DNA from: a virus | Reading direction: 5' to 3' (one strand) | Length of the DNA: 64,000 nucleotides | Virus record (IMG/VR): IMGVR_UViG_3300035703_000038 | Location: 1-64,000 of that record | Shown: piece by piece, positions 23,541 to 61,949 of the stretch | Layout of the letters: every line of letters begins with the position of its first letter | Numbering within the stretch: the first letter of the stretch is position 1 | Position numbers and translations under genes: made by a program | The notes under the pieces: model-generated | The model's database searches: none | Seen by the model: only the letters and a program-made list of their open reading frames with translations | Told to the model about the DNA's origin: nothing

Positions 23541-25340
23541 ATGGCTAATGGATTCCTTACAACATCGGAACTAGATTTCCAAAACTACAAATCAAGCCTA
23601 AAAACATTCCTATCTCAGCAGGATGTGTTTAAGGATTACGATTTTGAAGGATCTAACATGGCTGTGTTGCTGGATCTGCTAGCATATAACACCTACATGA
23701 ATGGTGTCTACCTAAACATGGTAGGCAGTGAAATGTTCTTAGACACTTCTCAACTACGCGAATCAATCGTTTCTCATGCTAAAGAGTTAAACTATACACC
23801 ACGTTCTAGAACAGCTGCTACTGCATTTGTTGATATTACAATTACACCATCTGATGCACCTGATTCAATTACAATTCCAAAGTACTACGAGTTGAATGGT
23901 AGAACAGAAGATAACACAACCTACTACTTTACAACTGACGAAGCTGTAGTTATTAGAGCAAACAATGGTGTGTATAAGGCTGCCAATGTTGCTGTATACG
24001 AAGGTAACATTGTAAGAGAAGTATTTGTTGCCAATGCATCAACTCGCTATCTATTACAATCAGCCAATGTTGATATTCAATCAGTAGATGTCACTGTTAA
24101 GGATTCAGCTGCTGCTACAGAAGAAGTCAAGTGGAATAGAGAGACATTCTTGTTTGGATTAGATAACACAGATAATGTGTACTTCATCCAAGGTGCAGAA
24201 GACCACTTGTTTGAGCTTGTATTTGGTAACGGTGATATTGGTAAGTCGTTGGTGGATGGCAATGTTGTTACTGTCAACTATAGAGAAACAAATGGTTTAG
24301 ATGCCAATGGTGTTGAGACATTTACAGCACCTAATGCAATTCAAGGCTATACAAATATTTCTATTGCTACAGTTGTAGCAGCTGCATCAGGCTCCGAACA
24401 TGAGACGGATGAAGAAATCAAATTTAATGCTCCTAGATACTTCCCAACACAAAATAGAGCTGTAACAGTTGAGGATTATATTGCGTTAACAAAGCAAGCA
24501 TTCCCATCTCTAGAAGTTGTTACAGCATATGGTGGTGATGAGGTAGAGCCAAAGCAGTACGGTAAAGTTATCGTTGCTGCTAAGCCAGTTGGTGGCACGA
24601 AGCTCTCTACACCTCTAAAGACTCAGATGTACAACTATCTGAAAGAGAGATCATCTATCTCTATTGACCCAGTTATTGTGGATCCAGAGTACTTCTTTGC
24701 AGAAGTTGTTACTGAAGTTCTATACAATATTAACCTAACAGCGAGATCAGCAAGAGATATCCAGGCTCTTGTGGAAGAAACTATTGCCACATGGGGTAAT
24801 GATAATCTTGAGAAGTTTGGTTCCGATCTAAGATACTCAAAGCTAGTTAGAGCAATCGATGATTGCGAAGATGCTATCATTAGTAATAACACTGAATTGA
24901 GATTGTTCAAACTAATTGAAGTCGATACAGGCATCCCATTCAGAATTTCTCTATCATTTGAAAATGAGCTGAAGCAAGAAATATCCTCGACAAGAAAGAT
25001 TTACGAAGATACAACATCAACAATTGAAACATCACTGTTTACATACAACTTAAACAATGTAGATTATCTTGCCAAGATTAAGGATGACACACAGGGTAAC
25101 CTTGTCCTCGTATCAACTGTTAATGGCCAGGTTCAATTGTTGAAGGATAAGATTGGTACTATTAATTATTTGACTGGTGAACTATCAATTGGTGAGCTAG
25201 TATATGAGGATGTTGGTACCAATGGCGAGCTTGAAATCTACGCAAGAACAAAAAAGCTTGACCTAGAAACAAAAGCCAATAAGATTCTACAAATTGATTC
25301 TGCTCGTCTTGTTGTTACTGTAAATGGTATTAGAGAGTAA
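23541..25340 (+). CDS. gp6: baseplate wedge subunit (gp6)
   Basis: LDF...K..L..FL..Q..F.DYDFEGS....LLD.LAYNT; QNRAVT..DY. Confidence 0.95.
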   Translation: MANGFLTTSELDFQNYKSSLKTFLSQQDVFKDYDFEGSNMAVLLDLLAYNTYMNGVYLNMVGSEMFLDTSQLRESIVSHAKELNYTPRSRTAATAFVDITITPSDAPDSITIPKYYELNGRTEDNTTYYFTTDEAVVIRANNGVYKAANVAVYEGNIVREVFVANASTRYLLQSANVDIQSVDVTVKDSAAATEEVKWNRETFLFGLDNTDNVYFIQGAEDHLFELVFGNGDIGKSLVDGNVVTVNYRETNGLDANGVETFTAPNAIQGYTNISIATVVAAASGSEHETDEEIKFNAPRYFPTQNRAVTVEDYIALTKQAFPSLEVVTAYGGDEVEPKQYGKVIVAAKPVGGTKLSTPLKTQMYNYLKERSSISIDPVIVDPEYFFAEVVTEVLYNINLTARSARDIQALVEETIATWGNDNLEKFGSDLRYSKLVRAIDDCEDAIISNNTELRLFKLIEVDTGIPFRISLSFENELKQEISSTRKIYEDTTSTIETSLFTYNLNNVDYLAKIKDDTQGNLVLVSTVNGQVQLLKDKIGTINYLTGELSIGELVYEDVGTNGELEIYARTKKLDLETKANKILQIDSARLVVTVNGIRE

Positions 25341-27334
25341 TGAGACAACTAGAAAGTTACATTTCACCATTTATTGCTGATCAGTTTCCTTCAATCTATA
25401 AGGAAGAAGGTCCTCTATTCATTGCTTTCGTCAAGGCATACTTTGAGTGGCTAGAATCAAATGGTCAAGTTGTAAATGATTCAAGACGCTTGCTCGAATA
25501 TAGAGATATTGATAAGACAGTAGATGAATTTGTCAACCAATTTAAAAAGAAGTATATGTTCCCTATCCCAGAAGATATTGCTGGTGATAAGAGACTACTA
25601 CAGAAGCACATCAAAGAAGTATACGGATCAAAGGGTACAGAACGTGGCTTGAAGCTTCTGTTCCAGCTACTGTTTGGTGATTCAATCAGTGTCTATAGAC
25701 CTGGCGATGATGTTTTCAGATTATCAGATGGTGATTGGAGTAGAGACATCTACCTCGAGGTTGCCTATAAGCCATTCAATTCACTATTTGTTGGTGAGTT
25801 TATCAGAGGACGTATCTCTGGTGCCCGTGCCTATGTTGCAAGCTTCCAGACAAAATATGTTAATAATAAAAACATTAACATCTTCTATTTAACTGATGTT
25901 CAAGGCAACTTCCTATACGATGAAGTAGTTCTTATTGATGAAAATAGATTGGCACCAGGCGTTGCCCCAGCTGTATCTGCTGTCAACTCACCAAAAATTA
26001 TTGGCTCACTAACAGAAGTAGATGTAACAAATAGATCATCTCCATTTGGATACACAGTTGGTGAACAACTTGAAGTCCAAGGCTCAGGCAAAGGTGGTAA
26101 GGTTGTTGTTACGAGTTTGCAAGAGCTAGATGGTACTGTATCATTTTTCCTAAAGGATGGTGGTTCAGGTTATACAGTCAACACAACAGTATTCACAATA
26201 TTTGGTCCAGTCACAGGTGTTGTGGTAGAGGCTGGTGGCTCAGGATACGCAAATTCTGACTACCTAATATTTTCTAATGGCACATCACTTGGATATGCCA
26301 ATCTTGTAACGAATAGCTCTGGTGGTATTCTCAATAATACTGCAACTGGCCAGACATACTTCTCAGTCACCAATGGTGGTAACGGATTCCAAACAGCACA
26401 GACATCCGTTGTAGTTACCATTGCCAACTCAACTGGTGGTGTATCAGGTGGTGTTGGTGCCAATCTAGTACCTACAATTGCTGGTGGTGGCGATGGCGCT
26501 GCTCTGAGAATTGGTGGGCTATCAGATCTTAAAAGTATATTTGGTTCCATTGTAAAAATTAATGCTATTGGTCAAACTACAACATATCTTCCTACAGCAA
26601 ACAGTTATGATGATATGGTTATTGGTACACCATCCTACCCAACAGGCACAGGCTATGGTTTGTCATCCAACGTTGCTGCTGGCTTTGATACAATCTTGGC
26701 CGATGCATTGGATTACAAAATCTACGAAGTTGGCACAATATCTAAAATCTTTACTGTCAATCCAGGTTCTGATTATACAACAAACTTGACTGTTACTGCT
26801 GTGGATACATTAATTAGTCAGTTTAAATTTTCCGACCAAGAACATCCTGCCGGTAGAGGACCAACTGGTAGTGGTAGACTTGGTAATAATGCCATCGTTA
26901 CGGCTGTTACAGGATTTGGTTCAGATGCACTTGGTTCTGTTAAAGTAATTGACTCAGGCTTAGGTTATGAGCAAAATGAAGAAGTAACTCTTGTATCTCT
27001 TTCAAATACAAACCTTGTTACCTCTGGTACAGCTCTACTTTCAAAGCAGGGTCAAGGTCAAGGTGAGTTCAAATCAACAAGAGGGTTTTTGAGCTCAGAT
27101 AAGTACATACATGACAGTTTTTATTATCAAGACTATTCGTACGAAGTTAGATCGTCAATTGTGTTTAATAAGTACAGTGATCTGTTAAGAAAATTATGGC
27201 ATCCAGCAGGTGTAGAGAAATTTGGTCGCGTGTTGGTAAGTAGTGAAGTAACAGTTGCCACTCCAGATATCAATACACAAGGATATGTTGGTGATGGTAG
27301 CACAACAACGTTTGGCATTCCTGGTGGGGCATGA
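25340..27334 (+). CDS. gp7: baseplate wedge initiator (gp7-like)
   Basis: QFP.......P.F..F..AY..W; Y.SKGT...L..LF; DS.YYQDYSY; HPAG...FG; follows gp6. Confidence 0.8.
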   Translation: MRQLESYISPFIADQFPSIYKEEGPLFIAFVKAYFEWLESNGQVVNDSRRLLEYRDIDKTVDEFVNQFKKKYMFPIPEDIAGDKRLLQKHIKEVYGSKGTERGLKLLFQLLFGDSISVYRPGDDVFRLSDGDWSRDIYLEVAYKPFNSLFVGEFIRGRISGARAYVASFQTKYVNNKNINIFYLTDVQGNFLYDEVVLIDENRLAPGVAPAVSAVNSPKIIGSLTEVDVTNRSSPFGYTVGEQLEVQGSGKGGKVVVTSLQELDGTVSFFLKDGGSGYTVNTTVFTIFGPVTGVVVEAGGSGYANSDYLIFSNGTSLGYANLVTNSSGGILNNTATGQTYFSVTNGGNGFQTAQTSVVVTIANSTGGVSGGVGANLVPTIAGGGDGAALRIGGLSDLKSIFGSIVKINAIGQTTTYLPTANSYDDMVIGTPSYPTGTGYGLSSNVAAGFDTILADALDYKIYEVGTISKIFTVNPGSDYTTNLTVTAVDTLISQFKFSDQEHPAGRGPTGSGRLGNNAIVTAVTGFGSDALGSVKVIDSGLGYEQNEEVTLVSLSNTNLVTSGTALLSKQGQGQGEFKSTRGFLSSDKYIHDSFYYQDYSYEVRSSIVFNKYSDLLRKLWHPAGVEKFGRVLVSSEVTVATPDINTQGYVGDGSTTTFGIPGGA

Positions 27335-30300
27335 GCAATATAACGGTTAAAGTAAATGGAGTACTTCAGGTGCTTGGCACCGATTACACCATTTCTGGTA
27401 ACAATGTTGTATTTACGACAGCACCCGCTGCCAATAGTAAAATTGAAATTCGTAAAGAAGCAGAAAGAACTGCAATTGAAACAAGCTTCAAGATCCAGCA
27501 GGTATTCTTAACTCAGCTTGTAACTTCCTATGCAACAGAAACAACTGTTACAACTACATTTGCTACAGCAACTGGCCAGGTCACACTCACAGCTTATGTT
27601 ACTGATGTAGATACATCTAGAACAACCAACTCAGTATTTGGCACTAGCAAATCAACATCAACTAGCTACCCAACAGTATTTAATACTGCATATGGAACAA
27701 CAAAGAACACAGCTTCTCAGTATGTAACGGCTTACGAATCTGGATTCCAAACAGTGACTGTATTTGATACAGATATCAATACGGCTGTTGACACAACAAG
27801 AACAACCAATACAACATTCCCAACCTCTTTGGCTACTGCCACATCACAATCAACAGTTACGGTTGTTAACTTTAACACAACATACAGTACAGACCAGACA
27901 ACAACCACTGCATTTGAGACAGCTTATAGCACGGTATTTAATACAACAACTGCATACGAAACAAATAGAACAACTGTCTTTGATACAAACCTATTAACAG
28001 CAACATCTAGACAGACAGATACATCTAAGCAAACATCTAGCGTATATGACACTACATATTCGTCTTTCTATGCTACAAGTACTACATTTGACACAGTTAT
28101 CAATACAGCTGTCAACACATCCAAGTCAACAGATACAAGCCAGGCTACAAGTAAGTCAACAAATACGACTACAACATTTGTAACTATTTTTGAAACAGCT
28201 GGCTCAACATCAAGAAACACAGCCACTGTATATGACACAGTGTTTGATACAAACAGGTTGACTGGTACAACAATCAATACAACATTTGATACTATTATTG
28301 GCACAAGTAAGGCCACAAGCACATCTAAATCAACAACATCTGTATTCAACACATCAACAACATTTGATACAGTGTTTGATACTGGCTATGATACATCCAA
28401 GTCAACTACATCAGTATTCAATACAACAACGTCATTCAATACTGTATTTGAAACAAACTTTGGCACTACGACTGCTTTTGATACAAACAGAGCTACAGAC
28501 ACATCAAAAAATACTGCTACTAGTAAAAGTACAACAACAGCCTTCAATACAATTACATCTTATGATGTAACTACAACATTTGTTACTGCCTATAATGCTG
28601 CAACTGTTTATATTACGACACAGGGTGCTGACACTGCTAGATCAACAAGCAGAATAACAGATACAAATAGATCCACAACAACTGCTTTTGATACTACAAC
28701 AACTTATGGTACAACATTCTATTTTATTACCAGCAAGCAGACAGATACTAGCAGGCAAACAGATACAAGCAAGAGCACATCAACTGTATTCAATACTATA
28801 ACAGCATACGATACGTTAGTTGCAACTGCTGTTACTAAGAGTACTACAACATCTTTCAATACAATAACAACGTTCAATACAACGTATGATTCCACATACA
28901 ACACAACTTATTCAACAGACTCAGGAACTACACAGCAGACAGACACATACAATAGTGGATCTGGTAACGTAACTGCTCCAGCTGGTGCCACATCCGTAAC
29001 TATCAAGGTTTGGGGTGGCGGTGGTGGCGGTGGCTGTGGTGAAACGCGTAGTGCCGGCGATCTTGGCGGCGGTGGTGGTGGCTCAGGTGCCTATGTTGAG
29101 AAGACAGTTTCTGTAACTGGTGGCTCAACATCATTTTCATATTCTGTTGGTTTAGGTGGTGGTGGATTTGGTAACCCTCCAGGTGCCAATGATGACGATT
29201 CGTTTGCAACAGGTGATGCTGGTGGACAGTCAACTGTAACTGGTACTGGCGTCAACATGGTTGCTCCAGCAGGTAATGGTGGCCAGTGTGCTTATTATGA
29301 TTCATTTGGTGATATTGTAACTGGCGGTGTAGGTGGATTTGGTGGCTTTGGCGCTAGTGGCGGTGATACAAACACGGATGGTAATGCAGGTAACCAGGGT
29401 GGTATAAACTTTGGTGGCCAAGGTGGTAGTGCTCCAAGTGGTGGCACTGGTGGTGCTGGTGGTACAGGTACTGGTGATGGTTCAACTGGTGGCGCTCCAG
29501 GTGCCGGTGGTGGCGGTGGCGGTGAGAATGATGGTAGTGGTGGTAATGGTGCTGATGGTCGCGTTGAGTTTGTTTGGACTATCTCCACAACAACAATCAC
29601 AACAAGATCAACAAGTGTATCGACATCAAAGTCTACAACACTATCAACTGGCACATCTGCATCTACAACAACTGCTTATAGTGTTGACACAGCCTACCCA
29701 ACAAGTAGAACAACATCCACATCTAAGTCAACAACTACTGTATTCCAGACCGCAACTACATTCCAGACAATAACATCATTCAATACTGGTCTTGGTGGTA
29801 CAACAAGCAGGGCTACTGGCACAAGCAGATCAACAGTATCTGTATTCCAGACAACATCGACATATGATACCTCATATGGTACTACATTCTACTTCAACAC
29901 GAGTAAGGGCACCACATTCTACTTTAATACAAGTAGAGCAACTACTGTAGCCCAAGCAACAGGTACAAGTAGAGGCACAACAACTGTATATGATACAAGC
30001 ACAATATTCCAAACATCCACTATATTTGGTACAAGTGCTGCAACCACAACAGTGTTTAATACAGCTAGAGGCACAAGTGCTGTAACAGCAACATCAAAAT
30101 TAACAACAACAGCCTATAATACTGTTGTTGCCACATCTCTTGCAACCAGCAGAACAACAGCAACATCTAAATCAACTACAACTGTATTTGATACTACAAC
30201 TGCATTTGACACAGCTTATGCTACAAGTAGATCAACTGTTAAGAATACAACAACTACATTTGAAACAAACATCAGCACAAATAAGCAGACAGCTACAACA

Positions 30301-33300
30301 TTTACTACAACATTTAATACTGCAGCTGCCACAGGTTTAGCAACATCAACAACTACAACCTATTCAACTGTTTATTCTACAACAACAACTTATAACACAG
30401 GTTACGATACTGCATTTGCAACAAATCGTAATACCGACACATCTGTAATTACAGTTAAATCGACAAGTAAACAAACAGCCTCTGTATTTCAGACTGCTAC
30501 CACATTTGATACAAGCACTGCATTTGAGACTTCTAGATCAACAGTATTTGACACTCTAATTGCTACTAGCACGTCGCGCGATACAGTTATTGGTACTGCT
30601 AGAAGCACACTATCAGCATTTGAAACAACTATTGGTACATCTTCAAATAAGTCAACAACAACTGTCTATAATACAACAACAATCTTTGACACATCAAGAC
30701 AGACAACATCTATATTTGTAACTGGCTATAACACTGCATACGCCACAAACAAGCTAACCAACACGAGTGTGTTCACTACAGGCGTAACAACAATAATTAC
30801 ATCTACGGCATTTGATACTGTGTATGAAACTAACAGAAACACAGCAAGAAACACCACAACTGCCTATGATACAAATTTTGACACAACAACTGCATTTGAA
30901 ACAGTTGTTGATGAATCTAGAAACACAGCCACTGTATTCAATACAAATACATCCTCATCTCTACAAAGAAATACAGATACAGCAATTCTGACTGAATATA
31001 GAATTCTTGCTACACAAACCGTGTATAGCTCAACATACCAGACATTCTATGAAACTATTGCTGGTGTGCTAACATCTGTTGATACAAATGTTACGACAAG
31101 TAAGGTAACAGATACTGCTTATGTTGCTCAGAATAGAAACACGTTACGTGACACAGCATATCAAACAACAAACCCTACTGTAGTTCAGACAAGCACTCTA
31201 GGTAACACAAGTGCCACTGTCATTTTTAACACGACATTTGTAACATATGACACAGCCTTTGCAACTAGCAAGTCAACTACGTCTGTATTCAGCACATCAT
31301 ATGAAACTGTAGCTGGTACATCCAAGTCAACATCGACTGTTTACGATAGTGTATTTGATACAACAAAACAAACAACAATTACGACAGATACAGCTTCACC
31401 AACATCTAGATTGACAGCTTATGGTACAGGCACAAGCAGAACAACAACATCCGCTTTCTCTACAGTCATAACAACGACATATGGAACAGGTTATAATACA
31501 TCTAAGACAACCGATTCTGTCTATGTGACAGCATTCTTAACTGTATCAACATTTCAAACATCACCTCTTACTTCAGTATCTACATTACTGTCTAAGACAA
31601 CAGAGACATCAACGTTCTTTGCTACATCACAAGCAACAGATAAGAATACACTAACAAGCAGATCAACAGTTTATGTAAGTGGTGTATCGACAACTTCTCG
31701 TACAACAGAGTTTGCTACAGCAACATCAATCAATACAAGCTATGATACAAGAAGAGGTACTGATACTACAACTCAATATGAAGGTACGACTGTATTTGCT
31801 ACTGTATATGATACAAATCTAAATGTTGGCACAACAAGAATAACAGATGTTGCTACCTCAACAGCATACAACACTGTTATTAATACAGCAAGAGATACAG
31901 AAGTTGCTACAAGTAAGAATACAACAACAGCATTTGATACTGATACAGCAATACAAACATCATTTGATACAACAATTGCTACACAGTCAAGTTCTAGCAC
32001 TGCCTATGCCACAAACATTAGTACAAGTAAGTCAACAAGCTCAGTATTTGATACAACTTATGAAGTCAATACATCAACTAGCAAGTCAACGACTACTGCT
32101 TATCAAACAATATTCCAAACATCTAGAAATACAAGCACTGCTTATCAAACACTATTCAATACAGTGTATAGGGATACTGCTCTAGATACTGATGTAACCA
32201 CAACTACCGCTAAGGCAACAACTGGTGTAACAGGCACATCCACTATATCTGCAACATCAAGGACAACGACATATATTACAGAAGCACTGACAGATACGAC
32301 GTATCTAATGTCGAGCTCATATGCCACATCTACTGTATTTGAAACAGTTGTAGGATCTTATTACTTGACAGTGTTTGATGGTACGACAACATACGACACC
32401 AACTCTGGTGCTGGTACAATGAAGTCTACTTCTAAAACAACCAGCCTATCAAGAGCTACATCAACATACTTTGAATCAGCTTATGTAACATTGTTCCAAT
32501 CAACAACAGTGTTTGCAACTGATATCACAACAACAGGTATTAAGTCAACAGCAAGCAGATACCAAACAGACCTAGGCCTAGGTACTCTAAGAGACACAAT
32601 TGTCTTTACAAATGTCTACACCTCAACAAGTAAGACAACTGCAACAGGTACTGGCTTCAATACAACAACGACATATGATACTGGTATCCAAGCTGTTACA
32701 GATGTGCTGACTGCCGAAACAAAGAATACATCATATGATACTCTAACAAGATATGATACAGTTATCAACACAACAACATCATATCTATCATCATACTCAA
32801 CAATTGTTGATACGTCAAGAACTACATTAACTTCGACTGCCTTTGATACTTCTAGGGCAACTGCAACCATCTTCCAGACTGACTCTGGTGCTGGTACATT
32901 GCGTAACACATCTTTAAGTACAACAACAGCATTTGAAACTGTGTTTGTAATTACTCAATCATCTAAGTCAACTACAACAACATTCAATACAATTTCAAGA
33001 TATGACACAGCTCTTGATACAGATGTTTCTACAGCTACAAGCAAATCGACAGTTAGTGCTTATACAAGATTTGAAGGTGGTAGAACAACATCAACCGTAT
33101 TCAATACAGGGTATGAAACATTACCATTAGCCATCACAGTTGTTGGTACAACAAGATCAACAGCAACAGTTATTGTTACTGCATACCAAACATCATCTGC
33201 TACAGCTTATGATACAACTAGAGCAACAAACAAAACAACAACTACTGCATTTGAAACAACATACGGTACCGGTATCTTAACGGCAAGAGACACTTATACG

Positions 33301-34158
33301 TCTACAACAACTTCAACTGCATTCTTAACAGAATCAGCAAGATTGACCAATACTGTTTATAAGAACACTGCATTTGATACAGATGTGACAACTGCCACAA
33401 TTACTCAATTTGCTACAGAAACATCAAGAAACACAGCTACTGTTATCTCAACTGATACAACAATATCTACAACAACGGCTGGTGGTGCTACAACATCAAC
33501 TTCGTTCCAAACTGCAACACTAACATCCACATCATTCTATACAACTACTATAACGATTTCTGACTTGTTAACATCTAAGACAACAACAACAGGCTATGAG
33601 ACATCTTCATATATTGATACAACAATAGCAACTGTTTACCAAACATTAACACAAGTAGCCACATTAATTAATACAGTTGGCGTAACTCAGTTTGACACAT
33701 CTAGAACGACAGATGTTGAAATTGACTTCTCTGTTAGAGCAACAAGCTTCCAAACATTGACAGTTGTAGATACGTCAACAGCCTATGTCACCGGTAGCAG
33801 AATCACTCAGCGTTCTACAACAACATTGAGAAATACTGATACAGTTGAATATGTTAGAGATACAACAAGAACATCTGATCCAAATACAGTATACCAGACT
33901 AGCACAGTGTTCCTAACAACTACAGGCTCTGGTCTAGATACAGATAAGGTAACATCAAGACAGACTGACACAGAAAGATCAACATCATTTGTAACGGCCT
34001 TTGATACAACTACAACTTACCAGACAGATTCTGGTGCTGGTACAATGAAGTCAACATCCAAGGCTACAGCAACATCCAGAGCAACTGACCAGCAAGTTCA
34101 GACAAGCTATGATACTGCTATTCAGACAACATATGAAACTGTTTATATAAATAATTAA
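27331..34158 (+). CDS. giant Thr-rich self-complementary fibre protein with an internal glycine-rich head (possibly a C-terminal extension of gp7)
   Basis: 2275-aa ORF built from T-x-[FY]-x, T-x-[KR]-x and T-x units; Gly-rich domain at residues ~530-752; located between gp7 and gp8. Confidence 0.85.
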   Translation: MSNITVKVNGVLQVLGTDYTISGNNVVFTTAPAANSKIEIRKEAERTAIETSFKIQQVFLTQLVTSYATETTVTTTFATATGQVTLTAYVTDVDTSRTTNSVFGTSKSTSTSYPTVFNTAYGTTKNTASQYVTAYESGFQTVTVFDTDINTAVDTTRTTNTTFPTSLATATSQSTVTVVNFNTTYSTDQTTTTAFETAYSTVFNTTTAYETNRTTVFDTNLLTATSRQTDTSKQTSSVYDTTYSSFYATSTTFDTVINTAVNTSKSTDTSQATSKSTNTTTTFVTIFETAGSTSRNTATVYDTVFDTNRLTGTTINTTFDTIIGTSKATSTSKSTTSVFNTSTTFDTVFDTGYDTSKSTTSVFNTTTSFNTVFETNFGTTTAFDTNRATDTSKNTATSKSTTTAFNTITSYDVTTTFVTAYNAATVYITTQGADTARSTSRITDTNRSTTTAFDTTTTYGTTFYFITSKQTDTSRQTDTSKSTSTVFNTITAYDTLVATAVTKSTTTSFNTITTFNTTYDSTYNTTYSTDSGTTQQTDTYNSGSGNVTAPAGATSVTIKVWGGGGGGGCGETRSAGDLGGGGGGSGAYVEKTVSVTGGSTSFSYSVGLGGGGFGNPPGANDDDSFATGDAGGQSTVTGTGVNMVAPAGNGGQCAYYDSFGDIVTGGVGGFGGFGASGGDTNTDGNAGNQGGINFGGQGGSAPSGGTGGAGGTGTGDGSTGGAPGAGGGGGGENDGSGGNGADGRVEFVWTISTTTITTRSTSVSTSKSTTLSTGTSASTTTAYSVDTAYPTSRTTSTSKSTTTVFQTATTFQTITSFNTGLGGTTSRATGTSRSTVSVFQTTSTYDTSYGTTFYFNTSKGTTFYFNTSRATTVAQATGTSRGTTTVYDTSTIFQTSTIFGTSAATTTVFNTARGTSAVTATSKLTTTAYNTVVATSLATSRTTATSKSTTTVFDTTTAFDTAYATSRSTVKNTTTTFETNISTNKQTATTFTTTFNTAAATGLATSTTTTYSTVYSTTTTYNTGYDTAFATNRNTDTSVITVKSTSKQTASVFQTATTFDTSTAFETSRSTVFDTLIATSTSRDTVIGTARSTLSAFETTIGTSSNKSTTTVYNTTTIFDTSRQTTSIFVTGYNTAYATNKLTNTSVFTTGVTTIITSTAFDTVYETNRNTARNTTTAYDTNFDTTTAFETVVDESRNTATVFNTNTSSSLQRNTDTAILTEYRILATQTVYSSTYQTFYETIAGVLTSVDTNVTTSKVTDTAYVAQNRNTLRDTAYQTTNPTVVQTSTLGNTSATVIFNTTFVTYDTAFATSKSTTSVFSTSYETVAGTSKSTSTVYDSVFDTTKQTTITTDTASPTSRLTAYGTGTSRTTTSAFSTVITTTYGTGYNTSKTTDSVYVTAFLTVSTFQTSPLTSVSTLLSKTTETSTFFATSQATDKNTLTSRSTVYVSGVSTTSRTTEFATATSINTSYDTRRGTDTTTQYEGTTVFATVYDTNLNVGTTRITDVATSTAYNTVINTARDTEVATSKNTTTAFDTDTAIQTSFDTTIATQSSSSTAYATNISTSKSTSSVFDTTYEVNTSTSKSTTTAYQTIFQTSRNTSTAYQTLFNTVYRDTALDTDVTTTTAKATTGVTGTSTISATSRTTTYITEALTDTTYLMSSSYATSTVFETVVGSYYLTVFDGTTTYDTNSGAGTMKSTSKTTSLSRATSTYFESAYVTLFQSTTVFATDITTTGIKSTASRYQTDLGLGTLRDTIVFTNVYTSTSKTTATGTGFNTTTTYDTGIQAVTDVLTAETKNTSYDTLTRYDTVINTTTSYLSSYSTIVDTSRTTLTSTAFDTSRATATIFQTDSGAGTLRNTSLSTTTAFETVFVITQSSKSTTTTFNTISRYDTALDTDVSTATSKSTVSAYTRFEGGRTTSTVFNTGYETLPLAITVVGTTRSTATVIVTAYQTSSATAYDTTRATNKTTTTAFETTYGTGILTARDTYTSTTTSTAFLTESARLTNTVYKNTAFDTDVTTATITQFATETSRNTATVISTDTTISTTTAGGATTSTSFQTATLTSTSFYTTTITISDLLTSKTTTTGYETSSYIDTTIATVYQTLTQVATLINTVGVTQFDTSRTTDVEIDFSVRATSFQTLTVVDTSTAYVTGSRITQRSTTTLRNTDTVEYVRDTTRTSDPNTVYQTSTVFLTTTGSGLDTDKVTSRQTDTERSTSFVTAFDTTTTYQTDSGAGTMKSTSKATATSRATDQQVQTSYDTAIQTTYETVYINN
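34146..34153 (+). promoter_or_regulatory. T4 late promoter
   Basis: TATAAATA upstream of gp8. Confidence 0.8.
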
Positions 34159-34180: not shown

Positions 34181-36229
34181 ATGTTAACAAGATTCAAGCG
34201 CAATATTGTTGATTGTTTTATAGGCTCAGTGAGTAATACGCTGAGCGTTGAGCTGTCTGGTACTGTAACTGTCAATAGCTCTTGCACAACTGTAACAGGC
34301 ACAGGAACCAATTTCACATCTGATTTTGGTCTAGAAGATAGAATCTATATTGGTTCGCAATCTAGACAAGTAGTTTCAATTGCCAACGATACATTAATGA
34401 CAGTTGGCACACCATTTAGTACAAATGCAGCAGCCAACGTTTACCAAAAGGGTAAATTAGATAATAATGGTTATTATGTTTTTGCAGCCAGACAATCACC
34501 ATATCTAAATGACGATGTTGCCGCAAATACAATTGATAATGATTATGAAGGACAAACATTCCTACATGATGAATTGATGTTTGGTAGGAAGATTACTGAT
34601 ACTGATGTTGTACCAGTAGTTTCAAAAAAGAGCTGGCAGTCAAATACAATCTATAGCATTTACGATGATAAAGATACATCATTAATAGAAAAGAATTTCT
34701 ATGTTATTACATTTGAAAATAAAGTATACAAATGTATCTACAATAACAATGGCTCATCTTCTATAATTGAGCCAAGCCACACGCAGACAGGATTCCCTCC
34801 AGCTGAATCGGATGGATATAGATGGTTATATCTTTACCAGATAACAAATGATCAGCTATTAACATTTGGCACGGATAATTACATTCCTGTATTTGAAAAT
34901 ACAGATGTTAAGAAAGCTGCCATTGATGGTTCTATTTTTAATATCGCTGTAGAAGCTAATGGTTCTGGTTATCCAGCACATAGTGGTGTTATTGGTACGA
35001 CAAGCAATACGCAAATTGTAAAAATTAGCGATAATGCATCAACAGCTAATGATTTCTTTAGCAACTGTGCTATTACAATTACTAACGATTCAACAAACTA
35101 TACGTATGTAAAGGAAATCAGAGATTATGTTTCCAATAATAGTGGTAAGTTTGTTGTTGTAAAAATTCCATTTGCTAATGGACAGATTGCTAACAATAAT
35201 CCATATTCGATTGCACCATATATTAAGATTGAATCAAAGACTGGTTCAAACTGCGTAGCATATGCTGTCATGCAGAATGTTTCAAATACAACATTTGTTG
35301 GTAGCATAGAGTCAGTTGAGATTCTAAGTCCAGGCAGAAATTATAGACAAGCCAATGTAACAGTACAGACATCTGTTGGCTTTGGTTCTGGCGGTGAGGT
35401 TAGAGCAATCATATCACCACCTGGTGGCCATGGGCATGATGTTAAGAATGAGCTATACTGCCAAGCCGTTGGTATTGGTGTTGAGTTCTCAAACTCAGCA
35501 TTGCTAAATTTCTCATCTGATGTAGAATTTAGAACAGTTGGTTTGATCAAGAACCCATTATCAGCTAACACATTAATAACACCAGATGGTGTGGTTAATC
35601 TTGTTGCTAACAGTTTAAATGTTACTGGTTCCCAAACTAAGTTCACCCAGCAAGTAAACATTGGCGATTATTTAATCTATGCAGATGAGGAGAAAGAAGT
35701 TGCTGACATTACTAGCGACACTGCTCTCACATTAAAATCACCATTCTCGTATACAGTAGTTGCTGAATCATACGACGTTAGAAAGAGATATTCAAACTCA
35801 TATTTCAATCAAACTGTGTATGTTACAGCATCCAACACTACACCAACTCTACTCCAGGTTGGAGAGTTTGTGGTTGGTTCAGATGGCGCTGGTGGCGGCT
35901 CTCAGTCGAGGGGTAAGGTTGCATTTGCCAACACTTCTAAGATAGTTCTAACAGGACTAAATAAGAGTGAGACTCGTGGCTCAGCCAATGCAAAGATATT
36001 TGTAAATGACACACTAGTTGAGGGTGTTGGGTATGATGTTACATCAACTGCAACACCATTCATCGCTGCGTCAGGAGCTAAATACTCTAAGGTAGCAGGA
36101 AATAACTACATCACAAGAATACCTGATGTCAAATTATATTCTGGTGAGATTCTATATGTTCAGAATCTACTACCAGTACAAAGATCAAATACAACTAATG
36201 AACAAATTAGATTGATTATTAAGTTCTAG
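34181..36229 (+). CDS. gp8: baseplate wedge subunit (gp8-like) with inserted beta repeats
   Basis: W.....Y..YD; NFYV......VYKC..N; DGY.W.YLY; PPGGHG; YSGEILY..N..PV.R....EQI.LII.F. Confidence 0.88.
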   Translation: MLTRFKRNIVDCFIGSVSNTLSVELSGTVTVNSSCTTVTGTGTNFTSDFGLEDRIYIGSQSRQVVSIANDTLMTVGTPFSTNAAANVYQKGKLDNNGYYVFAARQSPYLNDDVAANTIDNDYEGQTFLHDELMFGRKITDTDVVPVVSKKSWQSNTIYSIYDDKDTSLIEKNFYVITFENKVYKCIYNNNGSSSIIEPSHTQTGFPPAESDGYRWLYLYQITNDQLLTFGTDNYIPVFENTDVKKAAIDGSIFNIAVEANGSGYPAHSGVIGTTSNTQIVKISDNASTANDFFSNCAITITNDSTNYTYVKEIRDYVSNNSGKFVVVKIPFANGQIANNNPYSIAPYIKIESKTGSNCVAYAVMQNVSNTTFVGSIESVEILSPGRNYRQANVTVQTSVGFGSGGEVRAIISPPGGHGHDVKNELYCQAVGIGVEFSNSALLNFSSDVEFRTVGLIKNPLSANTLITPDGVVNLVANSLNVTGSQTKFTQQVNIGDYLIYADEEKEVADITSDTALTLKSPFSYTVVAESYDVRKRYSNSYFNQTVYVTASNTTPTLLQVGEFVVGSDGAGGGSQSRGKVAFANTSKIVLTGLNKSETRGSANAKIFVNDTLVEGVGYDVTSTATPFIAASGAKYSKVAGNNYITRIPDVKLYSGEILYVQNLLPVQRSNTTNEQIRLIIKF

Positions 36230-36240
36230 AGGTTCAAAGA

Positions 36241-39200
36241 ATGTCGCTTGATATCGCAAATACAGTTCTAAATGCTTCTCCATACTTCGATGATTTCAAC
36301 GAGGATAAGAAGTTTCATAGAATTTTGTTCAGACCTTCTGTTGCCGTTCAAGCTCGTGAACTAAATCAACTTCAGTCTATTCTTCAGAACCAAATTGAGA
36401 GATTTGGTAACCACATCTTCAAAGATGGTTCAATTATTAAGGGTTGTGGTCTATCATTCCTTGCTCCAAATACAGCTCAAGCAATCGAGTTTGTTTCGAT
36501 TAATGACCAGTTCAACACAAACACATCGCTATCATCAACCAACACACAGTTTGCCAATGCAATTGTTGTTGGTAATACATCAGGCGTTGTTGCTCAGATT
36601 ATTTCAGCAAGAGAAGGCTTCAAAGCATCTTCTACACCAGCTAGATTCTTTATTAAGTATACCCAGCCAGCTGCAAATGGCCAAAGAACATTCTCAGAAG
36701 GTGAAGTTCTAAACATCTACCAGCCTGGTAGTCATTCATTGATAAAGTTATTCTTACAGTTAATACAGCTGTAACAGTAAACACAACAAACTTTCCAAAT
36801 GGCTCTAAGATTATTAACGACGTATCCCAAGCTCGTGGTTTTGTTGTCAATGCATATTCAAATACACTTGGTGACTTTGTTGAACTAAGAAATGTCAGAA
36901 AGACATTTGTTGCTGGTGACACAGTTACACTATCAACAGATGCAGGTATAACAGCAAGCATTCTAGATGTTGATTATATCAGCTTTGCCAACTCATTTAT
37001 TGACTCCGTAAATGTATTACCATCCAATGGCGTCCTTTATGGTAACTCATTGGGCTTTGCCTACGGTGTCACAGTATCACCTGGTGTAGTATTCCATAAG
37101 GGCCACTTCATTAAGGTTAGCGAACATACAACAATTGTTAATGAAAATAATGGTGATCCAGCTGGTAAGGTTTTATACTTCAACACCGACGAAGTTGTAG
37201 TTAAGGAAACTGACGATGCATCATTGTTTGATAATGCTTCTGGCACAACAAACATCAACGCACCTGGCGCTCATAGATTAAAACTTGTATCAACACTTAT
37301 TGCAAGAGATAAGGTTGGTGCCAACGCTATTTCAAATACCGATATTGCATTCCCAATTGTTGAGTTTGGAAACAATGGTCCAATCTTCCAAAGAACAAAC
37401 ACAGAGTATAACCTACTAGGTGAAGAGCTAGCTAAGAGAACATTTGAAGAGTCCGGCCACTATATTGTCAAACCATTCAACCTAACAACCAAGCCTCATG
37501 AAAATGATACAACAAGATTGTTCTATGATGTAAGCCAAGGTTTAGCTTATGTCAAGGGTCAAAGAAGAGAATTCATCAATAGACAAAATGTTCCAGGCAG
37601 AAGAGGTGTTGATACAATCAGCCGTGACCAGGCTATCACATCAATGTCATTTGGCAACTACACCCTTATAAATGATTTGAAGGGTTATTTCCCTGTAGAT
37701 CAGTCAAGCGAAGTTGTATTCTATAATGCTGAGCAAAATGCTGTATCTGGTACTGCATACAGAGAACCAGGTTCAACAGCAAACGGCACAATCGTTGGCT
37801 ATGCTAATATTAGAGCAATTAAGTACGTTGACTCAACAACAGCATTGAAGGGTGACCCTTCTGCAGTCTATAGATTATACATTTTTAACTACAGACCAGT
37901 TGGTACCTATACATTCCAAGATGCAAGATCAGTTGTTTACCACTCAGGTGTTGCAAACTCTACAAATGCAGAAGCATTTGCCGATCTAATTCTAAACACA
38001 AATAATGTCCCTACAATCTTTGAACAATCATTAACGCCACTACTATTCAGTTTGAATACGACAGCTGTTAAGGATCTGAGAAATGCTAATGGTGTCTACG
38101 ATACAAACTATTTCTATACAGCTGCTAATACTGCTGCAACTCTCTCAGAAGCAGGTGTAATTACATTTGGTATTGGCGCCCAGCAAGGTATTCTAGGATT
38201 TAGTAACGGCTCCTCAATTGAGGAAGCCTTGGTGGATGTGGTAGTTGAAGCAAACTGTACTACAAATAACTTAGTAGGTACAATCAGTTGTAACAGCACT
38301 AGTACGACTGTAACAGGATCATCTACAACATTCACGCAAGACTTTGTTGTTGGTGAACATATTACTCTACCTTTCCATAGCCAGACTAGAAGAATCACAG
38401 CAATTGCTAGTGACACTTCGTTGACAGTCAATTCAGTATTCTCTACTAGTGTCGCCAACAACTACCAAAGAACACACGTTAAGGGTTCAATTATTGCACT
38501 AAACCCAACAAGTGGTACAAAGAGAGTACTTGATCCATCTGAAGATCAAGAGTCAGCAACAATTAACTTATCATCAGTATATAATGGTCAGACAGCAGTT
38601 ACAGTTAGATTCTACGCATACAATAATGATGGTGCTACTCTAAAGAAAGAAATCACAAGAAATTCTCTTGTAATTATCAACACTGCCAACAACATTGCTA
38701 ATAGCGCTACTGGCCCATGGAATTTGGGTGTACCAGATGTATTGAAGATTACAGGCGTATATGTTGGTACAAACTCATCAAACTTTATTCTAGATGTCAA
38801 CAAGGCATCAGAGTTTGTTCTTGATAATGGTCAGCGCGACACACATTACGACCATGCTAAGATTTCATTATCACCTGAATCTTCAATGAACCTTGCTAAC
38901 AACTGGCTACTAGTTCAGTTTGATTGCTTTACAGTAAACTCATCTGTTGGCCAAGGGTTCTTCTCTGTAGAATCATATCCAGTAAATGATCAGTTGAATG
39001 CAAACGTACAGACATATATCAAGACATACGAGATTCCAAGCTACACTGTAACAGTTGGCAATACCCCAGTCAAGTATGATCTAAGAGATGTTGTTGACTT
39101 TAGACCATATAAGTCTAACACAGCTGCAGTCACTACTTCATTCACTGCTGCAACTATTAACCCTTCAGCAACAAATACATTCCAGACCAAGACTACAGAA

Positions 39201-42062
39201 TATAATCCATGGCCTGGCTCTACAATGCAAACAAACTTCACCTACTACCTAGGTAGAAAGGATAAGTTGGTATTGACAGCCGAAGGACAGTTTAAGGTAG
39301 AAGAAGGTATTCCAGATATTCTACCAAGAGCACTTCCAAATAGTCCTGAAGTGTTAACAATTGCTGATATTACAGTCCCTCCATATCCTTCATTGACAGA
39401 TACTGAGAAGTTGTTCCTACAAAGAACTGACTATAACATCAAGTATGATATTCTATCTCATAAGCGCTTCACAATGAAGGACATTTCGGTTCTTGAGAAG
39501 AGAATTGAGAGACTGGAATATTATACAACACTGAATATGCTAGAGAATCTAGCACTACAAACAACGATTGCTGATAGTAATGGCGACCAAAGATTCCAGA
39601 ATGGCTTCTTTGTTGATCCATTCAACAATCACGTGTTTGGTAGAACAGATGATGCTGAGTATAAGATTGCTATCGATGAAAAGAATGGCCTACTAAGACC
39701 AGCATTTGACCCAGAAGTTATTGAGATGGAGTTTGATACAGACACATCATCATACGCTAATGTTCAGATCACAGGCTCAATGGTTACACTTCCATATACA
39801 GAAGAAGTATTCATCGACCAACCATACGCTTCCGATGTTGTAAACATTTCAGGTTCACCTATCAAGTGGGTTGGTACAATTGATGTAAGACCTAAGGTTG
39901 CCAACGATATTGAATACTTGGCAAGAGCAGTTGCAGTTGGTAGTACATCATCTGTAGCTCAGGCTTATGAAAACATGAAGTCTGTAACACCAGGTACAGC
40001 TCAGTATGGCTGGTGGAGAGATAATGTTCAGACATCTGCCGACTTCAATCCAGGTGCCGCAGCCAATGATGCAAGAGACAGAACAACAATCTCTGCTCAA
40101 TCTGGCACATCTGTAACAACAGAAACAGGTGAGAAGGTTACAGCTGGTATTATCTACTACTCGAAGGAAAGAGTATATGGATTCAAGGCAGTTGGCCTAA
40201 AGCCAAATACTATCCACTACTTGTTTGTCAATGATAATGAAAACTCACAGCTAGCAGCATTGGGTGAGCTAAGCGCAAATCCAAATGCTTCTGATGAAGG
40301 CTTTGTTACAAGAACGACAACATGGGGTACACCACTCGAGTCTGACTCACGCGGTGAAATTATTGGTAAGTTTATTGCACCAGCATTCTCATTGAAGTCT
40401 GGTACACATAGACTATCACTAAGAGATAGAAGAACAAGAGCAACTGGCTTAGATACATCATATGCTGATGCATACTTTGTGTTGGATGTTACAACACAAG
40501 ATCCACCAGACATCGTCGAGCCACCTCCTCCTCCTCCTCCACCACCACCTCCTCCTCCGCCACCAGGCAACACAACTCCACGTCCAAACTTGGATGCAAG
40601 ATTTGTTGTAACTGGCAACACTACGATTTATGCTGAGGCAAATTCAACCGGTGGAATCCCAAGTGGTACATTTACGCTAACATTCACAAATGATAGCACC
40701 ATCTCAAATGGTACCATCACAGGATATAATTGGAACTTTGGTGCAATACCAGGATCTGTAACGTGTTCATTGAATACAGCTGCAAATGCTGGTCCACATA
40801 CAGTTAACATTACGCCAATTAATTCTGTTCAAGATATTAATGTATCGTTGATTGTAACAGACAACACATCTCAGACGAAGGAACAAGTACAAACAATTAG
40901 ACTAACTAAGCTACCTAAGGCTTCTCCACCATCCGCAAATGTTGTTCCAGGTAACACAAGCCCAGAAGGTATGAAGTTAACATTGTTTGCTTCAGTACTA
41001 AACCAGTTGTCAGACTCACTCGTATATAACGATCCAGCTCTAAGACCTGACTTCTACACAAACTGGAACCCAGGTATTTCTGGATTTACTGATGCACAAT
41101 TGTTGTCGCTAACATATGATACTGCAGCATCTCTTGGTACTAACACAGCACTAAGAATTATTGCTAAGCCAGAATATGATTATGAGGGTAATGTTGTTTG
41201 GACAATCACAAGTTCATCTGGTCCAGCTCTAACAAACTACTCATACGCTAACGTAACACAAATGTATGTTACAACTAGCGGTTCTGGTTATTCAAACAAT
41301 GATACAATCAAGCTATCAAATGGCCAGGTAGATGCTACTGCAACATTGTTTACTGATTCATCTGGTGGTATCATCTATGTCAACTTGACATCAAGAGGTA
41401 ACTTCTCTAATGGTGCAGTTGCCAATACTGAATCATTTACAGCAAATAGCACTGTAAACAATAACTTCACAATGAATAGAAGTGTTTCAAGCAACACAGA
41501 TATTCAGGTTGCAGTTAATGGTCTACTACAAACACCAACAACTGATTATGGTGTAAGTGGCTCAACATTGACATTCCCAACTAACCTAACAGTATCACCA
41601 AGTCCAGACATTGTACAGGTGACACACCTTGCATCGTTGACACCTGGTACTGGTTTGTTGGATGCAAGTCAAATTAGAGTCCAGGTTGCCAACTCAACTG
41701 CTCCTGCCAATAGCACAAACGGTAATACATCAGGTGGTAGTGGAGCTCAGTTTGCGATCATCCTTGGTGGAACAGCAAACTCCATTTCATCATCACCTAA
41801 GGTAACAAACGACACATTCACGTTGTACTCAAGCAGTACATCGAATGCTGAGTCTACTGTTACAGTCCGCGCCCAGTTCTACCTAGCTAATGGCTACGCA
41901 AATGTTGTTGGTACAGCAGAGCAGTCATTCACACTAAGAAACACTGCTGCAGTAACGCCAACTGCTCCAAACCCAGGTGGTGGTTCAACAGGTGTTGGAT
42001 CTGGTAGCAATGGTGGTGGAGCTGGTAAGCGTGACGAAAGAGTTAATGTGAAGAGAAATTAA
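36241..42062 (+). CDS. large virion structural protein (DUF4815/VrlC-like), interrupted by a -1 frameshift at ~36731-36770
   Basis: SPYFDDF...K.F.RILF.P...VQARELNQLQSILQNQIE.FG start; the -1 frame is open from 36732 into ORF 37050..42062 (APGAHRL, LA.RT.EESG.Y, RI..LEYYT.L, NGFFVD.F). Confidence 0.8.
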
Positions 42063-42075
42063 TTGAGGAACGATA

Positions 42076-43797
42076 ATGTCTGATCCAACATCTACAAAGT
42101 ATACAAGTTTAACACAGGTCTTTAGAGTAGCAGCACCAACTGGTATTCCAGGTGTGTTTGTCTCAAAGATTGGCTTGTATTTCAAAGCGAAATCAGATTC
42201 GCTTGGTGCTCAGGTGTTTCTTGTTAGACTAACAAATGGTTTACCAGATCAGGATAAGATTCTTCCAAACTCACTTGTTACAGTTAACCCAGAAGATGTT
42301 AATGTTTCAGCAGATGGTACTGCTGAGACAGTATTTACATTCCCACAACTACAATATCTCGAGTCAGCACAAAGCTATGGCTTCTGTGTAAGACCAATTG
42401 GTAACTCACCAGATTATCTACTATGGGTGGGTGAGCTTGGTGGTCGTGATATTGGTGACGATAAGCCAATTGGCTCTAATCCATTAGTCGAGCAAGCTTA
42501 TTATGCTGGTAACCAGCAAAGATATGCCGACATGATTAACCAGGATATTAAGTTCAAGTTATATAGAGCTAAGTTCTCATCAACCTATGGCACAGCAGCA
42601 ATTAGAAATAAGAATACAGACGTATTCTCAATTTCATCACTATCAACATTGACAGGTGTTGTTGGTATTAGGGCTGGTGATCAATTGTTTGGTTGGTCAA
42701 ATGGGTTTGTCAATACTGCAATCAGTGGTACTGTAAGCAAACTAGACTTGACAAACAGCCTAGTCTACATTAAGAACTCAACTGGCAACTTTACTGCAAA
42801 TAGTGATGTTGCATTTGTGAGAACTGGTAATGAGGAAGATACAGCGCTTTCAAATACAGCCGGTATTCTAGGCTTAGCTAAATTAGCTGCTGCTTCAAGC
42901 AATGGTCTTTACAAATTTAATTATCATGCAATTGTTCCAAAGTTAGGTATTGTCAAGACTCCTCTAACAGATATCACCTTGACGTATAAAGGTGCAATCT
43001 ATAATGGTGCTGCCTACACTCAAGATACAAAAACATTCCGTGTTGATAATGATATTGAATACGAATTCCAAGATGCCACAAGAGTATGGCTTGGTGAGTC
43101 GGAAGAAGTCAATGCTGTAAACCAATTTAGAACTGGTGTTACACCATCTGGCCTACAGTGTACAAATTCATCAATCATAATCGAAGCAACACTTTCATCA
43201 AACAATAACTTCATCTCACCTGTTATTGATCTAAGAAAGAATAATGTTGTGTTGCTACGCAATCTAATCAATGCAAATACAACAAATGAACATACTAGAA
43301 CTGGTGCGGCTGCATCCAAGTATGTTTCAAAGATTGTTACACTTGAAGATCAGATGGAAGCTGAAGATCTAAAGATCTACATTACAGCCAACAAGCCAGC
43401 TAACACAGACATTAAAGTTTACACTAAGGTGTGGAATGCTGCTGACCCAGAATCGTTTGATTCAAAGGTCTGGTCACTAATGGCTCTAGAGAATATTGAA
43501 GGTTCTAGAAATACCAACTCACCAGACGAATATATTGAATATGTTTACTCGTTTGCTAATTCAGCAAGTGCTGCTGGTAATGCATTAGCTGCCTACCAGG
43601 CTAACAATTCAGTTCCTGTTGTTTATTATGCTGCCAACTCAACTGGTGGCGTAACAGGTGGTCCATTCTACGGTGGCGATGGATACGATAGAGTAATTAA
43701 GAAGTTTGCTGTCAAGTTAGTACTAACAGCAGATAGTGGTAAGGAATATGTTTATCCTAAGGTTAATGATCTAAGAGTAATTGCATTGCAGATATAA
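42076..43797 (+). CDS. virion structural protein (resembles the C-terminal region of DUF4815/VrlC-type proteins)
   Basis: L.Q.F; G.FVS.I.LYF..K; D.KF.LYRA.F; SPVID; SKYVSK.V.L; P...DLR.IAL. Confidence 0.75.
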   Translation: MSDPTSTKYTSLTQVFRVAAPTGIPGVFVSKIGLYFKAKSDSLGAQVFLVRLTNGLPDQDKILPNSLVTVNPEDVNVSADGTAETVFTFPQLQYLESAQSYGFCVRPIGNSPDYLLWVGELGGRDIGDDKPIGSNPLVEQAYYAGNQQRYADMINQDIKFKLYRAKFSSTYGTAAIRNKNTDVFSISSLSTLTGVVGIRAGDQLFGWSNGFVNTAISGTVSKLDLTNSLVYIKNSTGNFTANSDVAFVRTGNEEDTALSNTAGILGLAKLAAASSNGLYKFNYHAIVPKLGIVKTPLTDITLTYKGAIYNGAAYTQDTKTFRVDNDIEYEFQDATRVWLGESEEVNAVNQFRTGVTPSGLQCTNSSIIIEATLSSNNNFISPVIDLRKNNVVLLRNLINANTTNEHTRTGAAASKYVSKIVTLEDQMEAEDLKIYITANKPANTDIKVYTKVWNAADPESFDSKVWSLMALENIEGSRNTNSPDEYIEYVYSFANSASAAGNALAAYQANNSVPVVYYAANSTGGVTGGPFYGGDGYDRVIKKFAVKLVLTADSGKEYVYPKVNDLRVIALQI

Positions 43798-61095: not shown

Positions 61096-61949
61096 CAGTT
61101 TATGACTTTGCAATTAGTCCTTCCGTTGGAGGTGTCTCTAACTGGACATTCGCAACAGACGGAAATCTAATATTGACTGACCCAGGTGAGTACACATTAA
61201 CATTTGCAGCAAGTGTCACAAAAAATGTTAAGATGTGGGGTGCCGGTGGTAAGGCAGGTAGTGGTGGTGTTGATGGTTGGGGTAACGGTGGTGCTGGTGG
61301 TGCCGCAACTGGTAACGTAAGTTTTGCTTCTGGTAGCAGCTATAAAATTAGAGTTCCTGCTGCTGGTGCAACAGGAAATGCTCCAGCATTAGCATATGGG
61401 GCTGGTAATGGTGGTGGTGGTAGTTATGGTTGTGGATCTGCTGGCTCGGGTGGTGGTTATGCAGGTATATTCCTATCAAGCGTCACACAGGGCAATGCAA
61501 TATTGATGGCTGGCGGTGGCGGTGGTGGCGCAAGTAGTAGAGGCGACTGTCGAGGCGGCCGTAGTGGTATGGCGGGTGGTGGTACTGCAGGACAGACAAA
61601 TCCCGATGGATACCATGGTACACCAGGAACTCAGTCAGCAGGTGGTTCGGCCGGTGGCGGTGGCACAGCCGGCTCAGCGCTACAAGGTGGCAATGGTGGC
61701 ACCGGTGGTGGCGGTGCTGGTGGTGGTTATTATGGTGGTGGCACAGGAACAAACGCCAGCAGCGATGGTGGCGGTGGTGGAGGCGGTGGATCCGGTTATT
61801 TCAACCCAAGCCTCGTCTCAAGTGCTACCCTATATACAGGGTCTGGCACTACTCCAGGAAACAATAGTGATGGTAATAGGGGTACTGCAGGTGCTTCTGG
61901 AGTAGGCGGTTCAACACCAACAAACGGTAAAGTGGTTATTACCGCGTAA
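60192..61949 (+). CDS. fibre/adhesin protein with IPT-Ig modules and C-terminal glycine-rich domain
   Basis: Shares a module with the upstream fibre; VKMWGAGG...GGGG...NGKVVI Gly-rich domain. Confidence 0.8.
   Translation: MARKFPGRAFDPNSSITVTSIVVGGASIQTDSNTGAIALIPKPTDSNPNPVAAVVAPTGGITTVNTTAGVAATNAIGAAAAANTASPVAIDIATSAPANGQALVWNASASKFVPGNVASGGSDIPKITGLVYPDDDTAANTSGGQTIYITGNNFVSNCKVYINNTLAPSITFVGSSNVGFTTPALSVNTYPLYLVNPDGGTAVFIPGLDVSSLPTWVTSSELTSFGASATITRTLEATSDSTVTYSLAGGSSLPSGLTLASNGVLSGTLTSPPASATTYNFSVVATDEEMQTATRAFSITATVYDFAISPSVGGVSNWTFATDGNLILTDPGEYTLTFAASVTKNVKMWGAGGKAGSGGVDGWGNGGAGGAATGNVSFASGSSYKIRVPAAGATGNAPALAYGAGNGGGGSYGCGSAGSGGGYAGIFLSSVTQGNAILMAGGGGGGASSRGDCRGGRSGMAGGGTAGQTNPDGYHGTPGTQSAGGSAGGGGTAGSALQGGNGGTGGGGAGGGYYGGGTGTNASSDGGGGGGGGSGYFNPSLVSSATLYTGSGTTPGNNSDGNRGTAGASGVGGSTPTNGKVVITA

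Follow-up and report, generated by a model that had tools for sequence, protein, structure and literature searches.

The window analysed here, a stretch of 64,000 nucleotides (positions 1 to 64,000 of IMG/VR virus record IMGVR_UViG_3300035703_000038, a 101-kb record with an estimated completeness of 56%), encodes a giant threonine-rich protein of 2275 amino acids. Its open reading frame (ORF; 27331..34158, + strand) lies between the genes of gp7-like and gp8-like baseplate wedge proteins, and Thr makes up 30% of its residues. A glycine-rich domain, referred to here as the head, is located inside this protein (residues 533-753; 28927..29589, + strand) and is predicted to combine a TNF-like with a glycine-rich part, its core matching Pfam family PF21722 at 28957-29577. 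It is flanked by an N-arm (residues 75-528; 27553..28914, + strand) and a C-arm (residues 758-1211; 29602..30963, + strand) that correspond to each other in the mirror register i+j=1286, the C-arm returning from the head in this register. An earlier sequence-only reading of the window had placed a glycine-rich adhesin-like domain at 28918-29586, at the apex of a long hairpin. These coordinates are correct and correspond to residues 530-752 of ORF 27331-34158, a segment containing 35% Gly.

The mirror relationship between the arms is apparent at the level of single residues. The Thr/non-Thr states of residues i and 1286-i agree in 383 of 454 pairs (84.4%) without a gap, while the 1172 other registers gave a mean agreement of 55-56% (standard deviation about 4%, maximum 67.8%), placing register 1286 at a z of about 7.5. 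Adding the first and last residue numbers of the head gives 1286 as well (533+753), which means that the domain is centred on the mirror axis to the residue, and in sequence terms its placement exactly at the apex is upheld. A forward-order dot plot only hinted at the mirrored order of blocks; the residue-level mirror test was decisive. Residues paired in this way are complementary and not identical: an aromatic residue stands opposite a basic one in 50 cases against 5.8 expected (about 9-fold), one face of the predicted ribbon being almost pure Thr and the other holding the aromatic-basic pairs. In an AlphaFold2 model of the head that included 30-residue stubs only of the arms, long strands were predicted at residues 522-540 and 744-763, and these overlay nearly exactly in the mirror register. 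We infer that they pair, because the model contains no further strand of sufficient length to partner them. The first and last strands of a TNF-type jelly roll are expected to be neighbours, so that a domain of this kind can sit in a hairpin without strain.

Shorter elements of a similar kind were noted further along the giant protein. A second gapless mirror pair is formed by residues 1306-1446 and 1459-1599 (31246-32127; sum 2905), with 141 amino acids per arm, a loop of 12 amino acids and 84% Thr-pattern agreement. The motif T[DN]SGAGT[ML][KR] occurs at residues ~1692, 1851 and 2233, together with the variant TDLGLGTLRD (32398-34053), and its copies may be the tight turns of shorter hairpins.

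The head is a real domain of a described and common family, and its fold is widespread at phage fibre tips. When excised and searched separately, residues 543-749 matched PF21722 (Gly_rich_2) with 43.5 bits (cut-off 24.3, E 4.9e-11) over profile positions 4-225 of 226, and a six-frame scan of the 101-kb record returned a single PF21722 match, at 28957-29577 (43.1 bits). The head also matches phrog_863 (1.6e-15), and phmmer retrieved 447 proteins at E<=1e-3 from 1.84 billion cluster representatives scanned. No match to Pfam PF12810 (ALK_LTK_GRD) was found at E<=1, and sequence comparison with the PDB gave none at E<=10. When the region and the head were compared with the phage collection by megablast and tblastn, nothing was retrieved, in the case of tblastn probably owing to the low-complexity filter. 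A locus search with the head alone yielded no relatives, and one with a three-row head alignment yielded only two contigs that were already among the relatives described below. At 55-57% identity and E down to 2.5e-42, the proteins most similar to the head are short, not rich in Thr and different at the N-terminus, which fits module shuffling. Three of these closest relatives, database proteins P0007, P0008 and P0010, begin with a common N-terminal tag, M[AP]ITAPVSLTKI..EF. Across 64 family members, 21 Gly columns are nearly invariant; in the heads of the window protein and of the related loci L009 and L017, the Gly motifs are likewise invariant and the segments between them variable. The only two Cys residues of the 2275-amino-acid protein (569 and 653; 29035-29037 and 29287-29289) both lie in the head and are not conserved in L009 or L017.

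Domains of this kind had been taken to be normally terminal. Terminal copies are indeed frequent, but a census of 114 full-length copies among the top 150 representatives, many of whose parent proteins are contig fragments, placed 23 internally (35 were N-terminal, 30 C-terminal and 26 stand-alone). Protein P0004 carries three internal Gly_rich_2 copies between other repeats. An internal position, at about 20%, is less unusual than the sequence-only reading had supposed.

The structure of the head was predicted with AlphaFold2 from a 64-sequence alignment consisting of window residues 500-790, two head-bearing relatives and 61 family members. The model has a mean predicted local distance difference test score (pLDDT) of 85.8 and a predicted template modelling score of 0.81, with core blocks at a pLDDT of 94-99, and its structural domain limits (model positions 34-254) correspond to protein residues 533-753. 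The top Foldseek match was the fibre protein gp24 of cyanophage Pam3 (E 1.6e-7). A wide structure search (VIA), in which all 48,161 representative chains were aligned and the top 50 inspected, also ranked gp24 first (7ypx_A residues 76-278; Z 22.2, root-mean-square deviation 2.4 A over 196 amino acids, 26% identity), followed by chain Q of the tail tip of mycobacteriophage Bxb1 (9d93; Z 18.6, 197 amino acids, 32% identity). Lower scores were obtained for the glycine-rich domains of ALK/LTK (PDB 7LS0, 7NX1 and others; Z 8.4-9.6), the N-terminal domain of Obg (Z 5.7) and the TNF-family ligands BAFF, EDA and TNF (Z about 4). As modelled, the head combines TNF-like and glycine-rich parts in the manner of the Pam3-gp24 / Gly_rich_2 type. 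Similarity to Gly-rich fibre-tip domains was recovered by profile search and structure prediction alike (PF21722, Pam3 gp24), as had been anticipated. The suggested assignment to the gp38 adhesins of T-even phages calls for correction: gp38 (6F45) was absent from the Foldseek matches, from a VIA re-alignment, from the VIA top 50 of 48,161 chains and from the PDB sequence search (E<=10), and the head is related to it only through the general idea of a glycine lattice.

Relatives of the locus were fetched via the gp7-like protein, giving 24 viral and 20 metagenome loci. The set used for comparison comprised ten distinct full-length giant proteins (that of the window and nine relatives) plus an informative fragment, L030. 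The giant proteins are about 50-55% identical (six aligned), and the boundary between the gp7-like and the giant ORF is the same in the relatives. Each full-length relative possesses its own gapless mirror arms and its own axis, with arms of 273-482 amino acids by Thr-pattern score, the shorter scored runs (273-339 amino acids) occurring in L014, L015 and L035. Runs between the N-arm and C-arm of one protein exceed those between proteins (324 vs <=53 for L015; 482 for L020 vs 70-73 with L009 and L004), which indicates that insertions and deletions in one arm are matched in the other. These matched changes are the strongest evidence that sequence provides for the predicted physical pairing of the arms. 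The conserved head anchors QTDTY and GRVxFxW add up exactly to the protein's own mirror sum in L009 (1236) and L017 (1321), despite differences in head length (220 amino acids in L009, 197 in L017 and 213 in the window protein).

The element present at the apex is not the same in all of these proteins. A glycine-rich head is found in the window protein, L009 and L017 as well as in fragment L030; an unrelated module of ~80 amino acids (…GYFKGIPLYSYYE…QCQQPIG) occupies this site in L014, L034 and L035 and, in diverged form, in L029; and other short loops of 35-110 amino acids are found in L004, L020 and L015. In the four head-less relatives that carry it, the ~80-amino-acid module lies on the mirror axis and reads …TVVGYFKGIPLYSYYETSKNT…TFYGQTLTVWEE..FDQCQQPIG (e.g. 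L014 residues 574-664). Along the arms, L004 can be aligned with L009 and L017 until about 10-20 residues short of the head. Homologues do swap the head and keep the arms, three kinds of apex element being present among the ten full-length proteins and L030. A maximum-likelihood tree built on the gp7-like protein groups L004, which has a short loop, and L029, which has the ~80-amino-acid module, as sisters (98/99 support); both fall into a clade (99/99) that includes L017 and L030, which carry the head. L009 is placed one weakly supported node (81/82) further out, and the window protein is on another branch. As the apex type differs between sister taxa on this tree, the apex is a site of exchange.

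The genes surrounding the giant ORF, typed with Pfam and PHROGs, are ordered as in the baseplate module of T4-like myoviruses, and the source of the ORF is an uncultured T4-like phage. A gp6-like wedge protein (23541-25340; 47.6% identity to its counterpart in Stenotrophomonas phage DLP6) is followed by the gp7-like wedge protein of 664 amino acids (25340..27334, + strand; phrog_17744 at 6e-136, Pfam PF23786), and a gp8-like protein is encoded downstream of the giant ORF (34181-36229; assigned by both Pfam and PHROGs). The whole 2275-amino-acid protein gave no match to PHROGs. The stop codon of the gp7-like gene overlaps the start codon of the giant ORF (ATGA). The end of the former and the start of the latter (27270-27456) fall inside an apparent single small beta domain, with ...YVGDGSTTTFGIPGGA on the gp7-like side and MSNITVKVNGVLQVLGTDYTISGNNVVF... 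on the giant-ORF side, and the same type of small beta domain recurs intact in ORF 54863-60184. A frameshift or assembly error at the junction between the 664- and 2275-amino-acid proteins was considered and rejected, since most relatives match all 664 residues with the same endpoint and the boundary is conserved. Downstream of the gp8-like gene, three consecutive ORFs (36241-36774, 37050-42062 and 42076-43797) match positions 3-152, 174-1233 and 1424-1628 of phrog_358 (DUF4815) and may represent a split or interrupted gene.

Another glycine-rich domain is encoded at the end of ORF 60192-61949 (residues 325-585; 61164..61946, + strand), and the head had been described as having the same architecture. 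The two share a fold, but the C-terminal domain of ORF 60192-61949 belongs to a different, ALK/LTK-like subfamily and has no BLASTP match to the head; they are linked by profile and fold comparison only. This domain scores 20.8 bits against PF12810, below the cut-off of 24.5, and scanning the genome itself with PF12810 gave no match, while its relatives carry PF12810 and some of them PF21722 as well. Profile-profile comparison (hhalign) with the head family gave 97% probability (E 1.3e-10) over only 63 columns. Its AlphaFold2 model (pLDDT 95.2) matches the three PDB groups found for the head, though ranked differently, with ALK/LTK at Z 16, Pam3 gp24 at Z 12.9 and Bxb1 chain Q at Z 11.3. ORFs 54863-60184 and 60192-61949 have a long block in common (…IALIPKPT…, with TIG and Ig-like domains) but differ in their terminal heads: the former has three laminin-G/ConA-like domains and the latter the glycine-rich domain. 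Tips seem to have been exchanged on a common shaft in this case too.

It is proposed that the head of the giant protein is a swappable cassette located where a long fold-back stalk turns, and that it most likely acts as a host-surface binding tip; we regard this as the probable explanation. A receptor-binding role is most likely by analogy with Pam3 gp24 (PMC9608196), gp38 (PMC12892980) and the T4 gp37 tip (PMC6957217). The chain would leave the baseplate end with its N-terminal small beta domain beside the gp7-like protein, go outward for about 454 residues, build the head and return over 454 residues in exact antiparallel register. The neighbouring first and last strands of the head would continue straight into both arms, leaving the stalk undisturbed by the insertion. 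In this arrangement the glycine-rich 'brush' would face away from the stalk; a fully extended ribbon (454 x about 3.3 A) would place it as far as about 150 nm from the baseplate, and the host surface would be bound through the variable segments between the glycine motifs. A more specific and more tentative version can be formulated, in which the stalk would be a single-chain two-stranded beta-ribbon of ~150 nm, one per wedge, with a pairing code (Thr-Thr, aromatic-basic), and the apex a universal socket presenting a monomeric receptor-binding head as one of at least three interchangeable tips. Such a socket would take autonomous domains with adjacent termini, swapped by recombination, and the stalk design would be one absent from solved phage fibres. 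Monomeric display, as favoured by the sequence-only reading, would fit the likely 1:1 attachment to the gp7-like protein, but the trimeric state of gp24 calls it into question.

Several observations weigh against an exchangeable binding tip on a fold-back stalk. The head is absent from seven of the ten distinct full-length proteins and is consequently dispensable for the fibre. Within its subfamily, the binding role of Pam3 gp24 is itself a proposal and not an experimental result, and the gp24 heads are trimeric. The proximity of the termini and the pairing of the arms in the model were read only from its secondary-structure string and pLDDT, the latter falling below 50 about 20 residues from the head. 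A bulge would be required in the window protein, where QTDTY and GRVxFxW deviate from the arm register by one residue, and the overall geometry of the fibre is not fixed by the arms, as 1064 residues follow the C-arm. With the same domain at the apex, the fold-back chains might instead form a bundle resembling the trimeric T4 gp37 needle, the heads trimerising like those of Pam3 gp24 to give a multivalent tip. This arrangement is possible, though we consider it doubtful. It would have the merit of covering the Thr face and the aromatic-basic face, which a lone two-stranded ribbon would expose to solvent. T4 gp7 is present in one copy per wedge, which speaks for a single chain, as does the N-terminal half-domain complementing the gp7-like protein, which suggests a 1:1 attachment. 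The ALK/LTK domains of the same fold are established as monomers, and were reportedly monomeric in the structures of 2021. The closest solved relative, gp24, is a trimer, but one held together mainly by an N-terminal helical bundle with loose contacts between heads (PMC9608196), and no such bundle is present here; the gp37 tip does provide a precedent for a domain nested in a fold-back stem inside a trimer (PMC6957217).

A role other than receptor binding, with the head nucleating the folding of the arms, clamping their register or docking an assembly factor, is judged to be unlikely. It would agree with the presence in every relative of a compact non-repeat element on the axis (the head, or 35-151 amino acids by the loop criterion), and the near-degenerate Thr-rich repeat arms would otherwise mis-register. 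Yet a loop of 35 amino acids suffices in L004 and L015, making a domain of 221 amino acids unnecessary for the turn; apex types switch between near relatives in the manner of host-range cassettes; and the known roles of the fold lie in binding (PMC9608196, PMC12892980). It is also conceivable, though very improbable, that the mirror pattern is a relic of repeat evolution in which the arms do not pair physically, the protein being a linear fibre with the glycine-rich domain as a side knob. Internal Gly_rich_2 copies flanked by other repeats do exist (P0004; 23 internal copies), and the pairing of the arms is a prediction. Such a relic would, however, not keep gapless arms of equal length in ten diverged proteins through matched insertions and deletions, nor would it yield complementary aromatic-basic pairs instead of identical ones, and AlphaFold2 predicts the strands flanking the head to be long partners.

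The head as such is ordinary for its family, and it is its presentation at a fold-back turn that is unusual. The literature yielded no description of such a head on the axis of a mirror-coded stalk (2 x 454 residues) serving as a socket for alternative tips. An exchangeable tip would give the mirror-coded stalk a functional logic, and the protein would constitute a natural example of domain insertion via adjacent termini. The head region (about residues 520-765) offers a short, well-defined unit with which host binding could be studied in a phage lineage that is uncultured. Should the stalk really be a single-chain ribbon, its design would be new among fibres and could serve to display monomeric binding domains at a set distance.

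Among solved structures, Pam3 gp24 (7YPX, 7YFW) is the nearest to the head, being a phage fibre protein with the same predicted fold and GGGGxGG-type motifs separated by variable segments. After its helical shaft comes a TNF-like domain, the strands of which run on into a lattice rich in glycine with distal loops proposed as the receptor site, and gp24 resembles ALK (2.6 A over 125 CA) and, more remotely, the gp38 of Salmonella phage S16 (2.7 A over 52 CA) (PMC9608196). In gp24 this domain forms the C-terminal end, after a trimeric shaft of helices, and requires the chaperone gp25 (PMC9608196), while the head is internal (533-753 of 2275) with Thr-rich beta arms on both sides and no helices predicted in its flanks. 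No Tfa-type chaperone was found with Pfam and PHROGs among the ten neighbouring large ORFs, the set covered by this search. Chain Q of Bxb1 (9D93) has a polyglycine-rich 'brush' domain, the role of which is discussed as the binding of lipid-rich envelopes (PMC13252515, PMC13243795); it comes from the tail tip of a siphophage. The ALK/LTK domains (PF12810) belong to the same fold superfamily but are parts of animal receptor kinases.

The gp38 adhesins of the S16/T2 type (6F45) also have glycine-rich motifs at the fibre tip, where these frame hypervariable receptor loops (PMC12892980). They differ from the head in forming a beta-helix instead of a TNF-like sandwich, and gp38 is a separate protein capping gp37, whereas the head is an internal part of a chain of 2275 amino acids. 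No sequence relation was found between the giant protein and T4 gp37, whose needle (2XGF) has a comparable layout in that a tip subdomain is nested in a fold-back stem (PMC6957217). The gp37 needle is an iron-binding trimer with stem arms of ~50 residues and a tip of 28 residues (PMC6957217); the giant protein, in contrast, has arms of 454 residues and carries an autonomous head of 221 residues.

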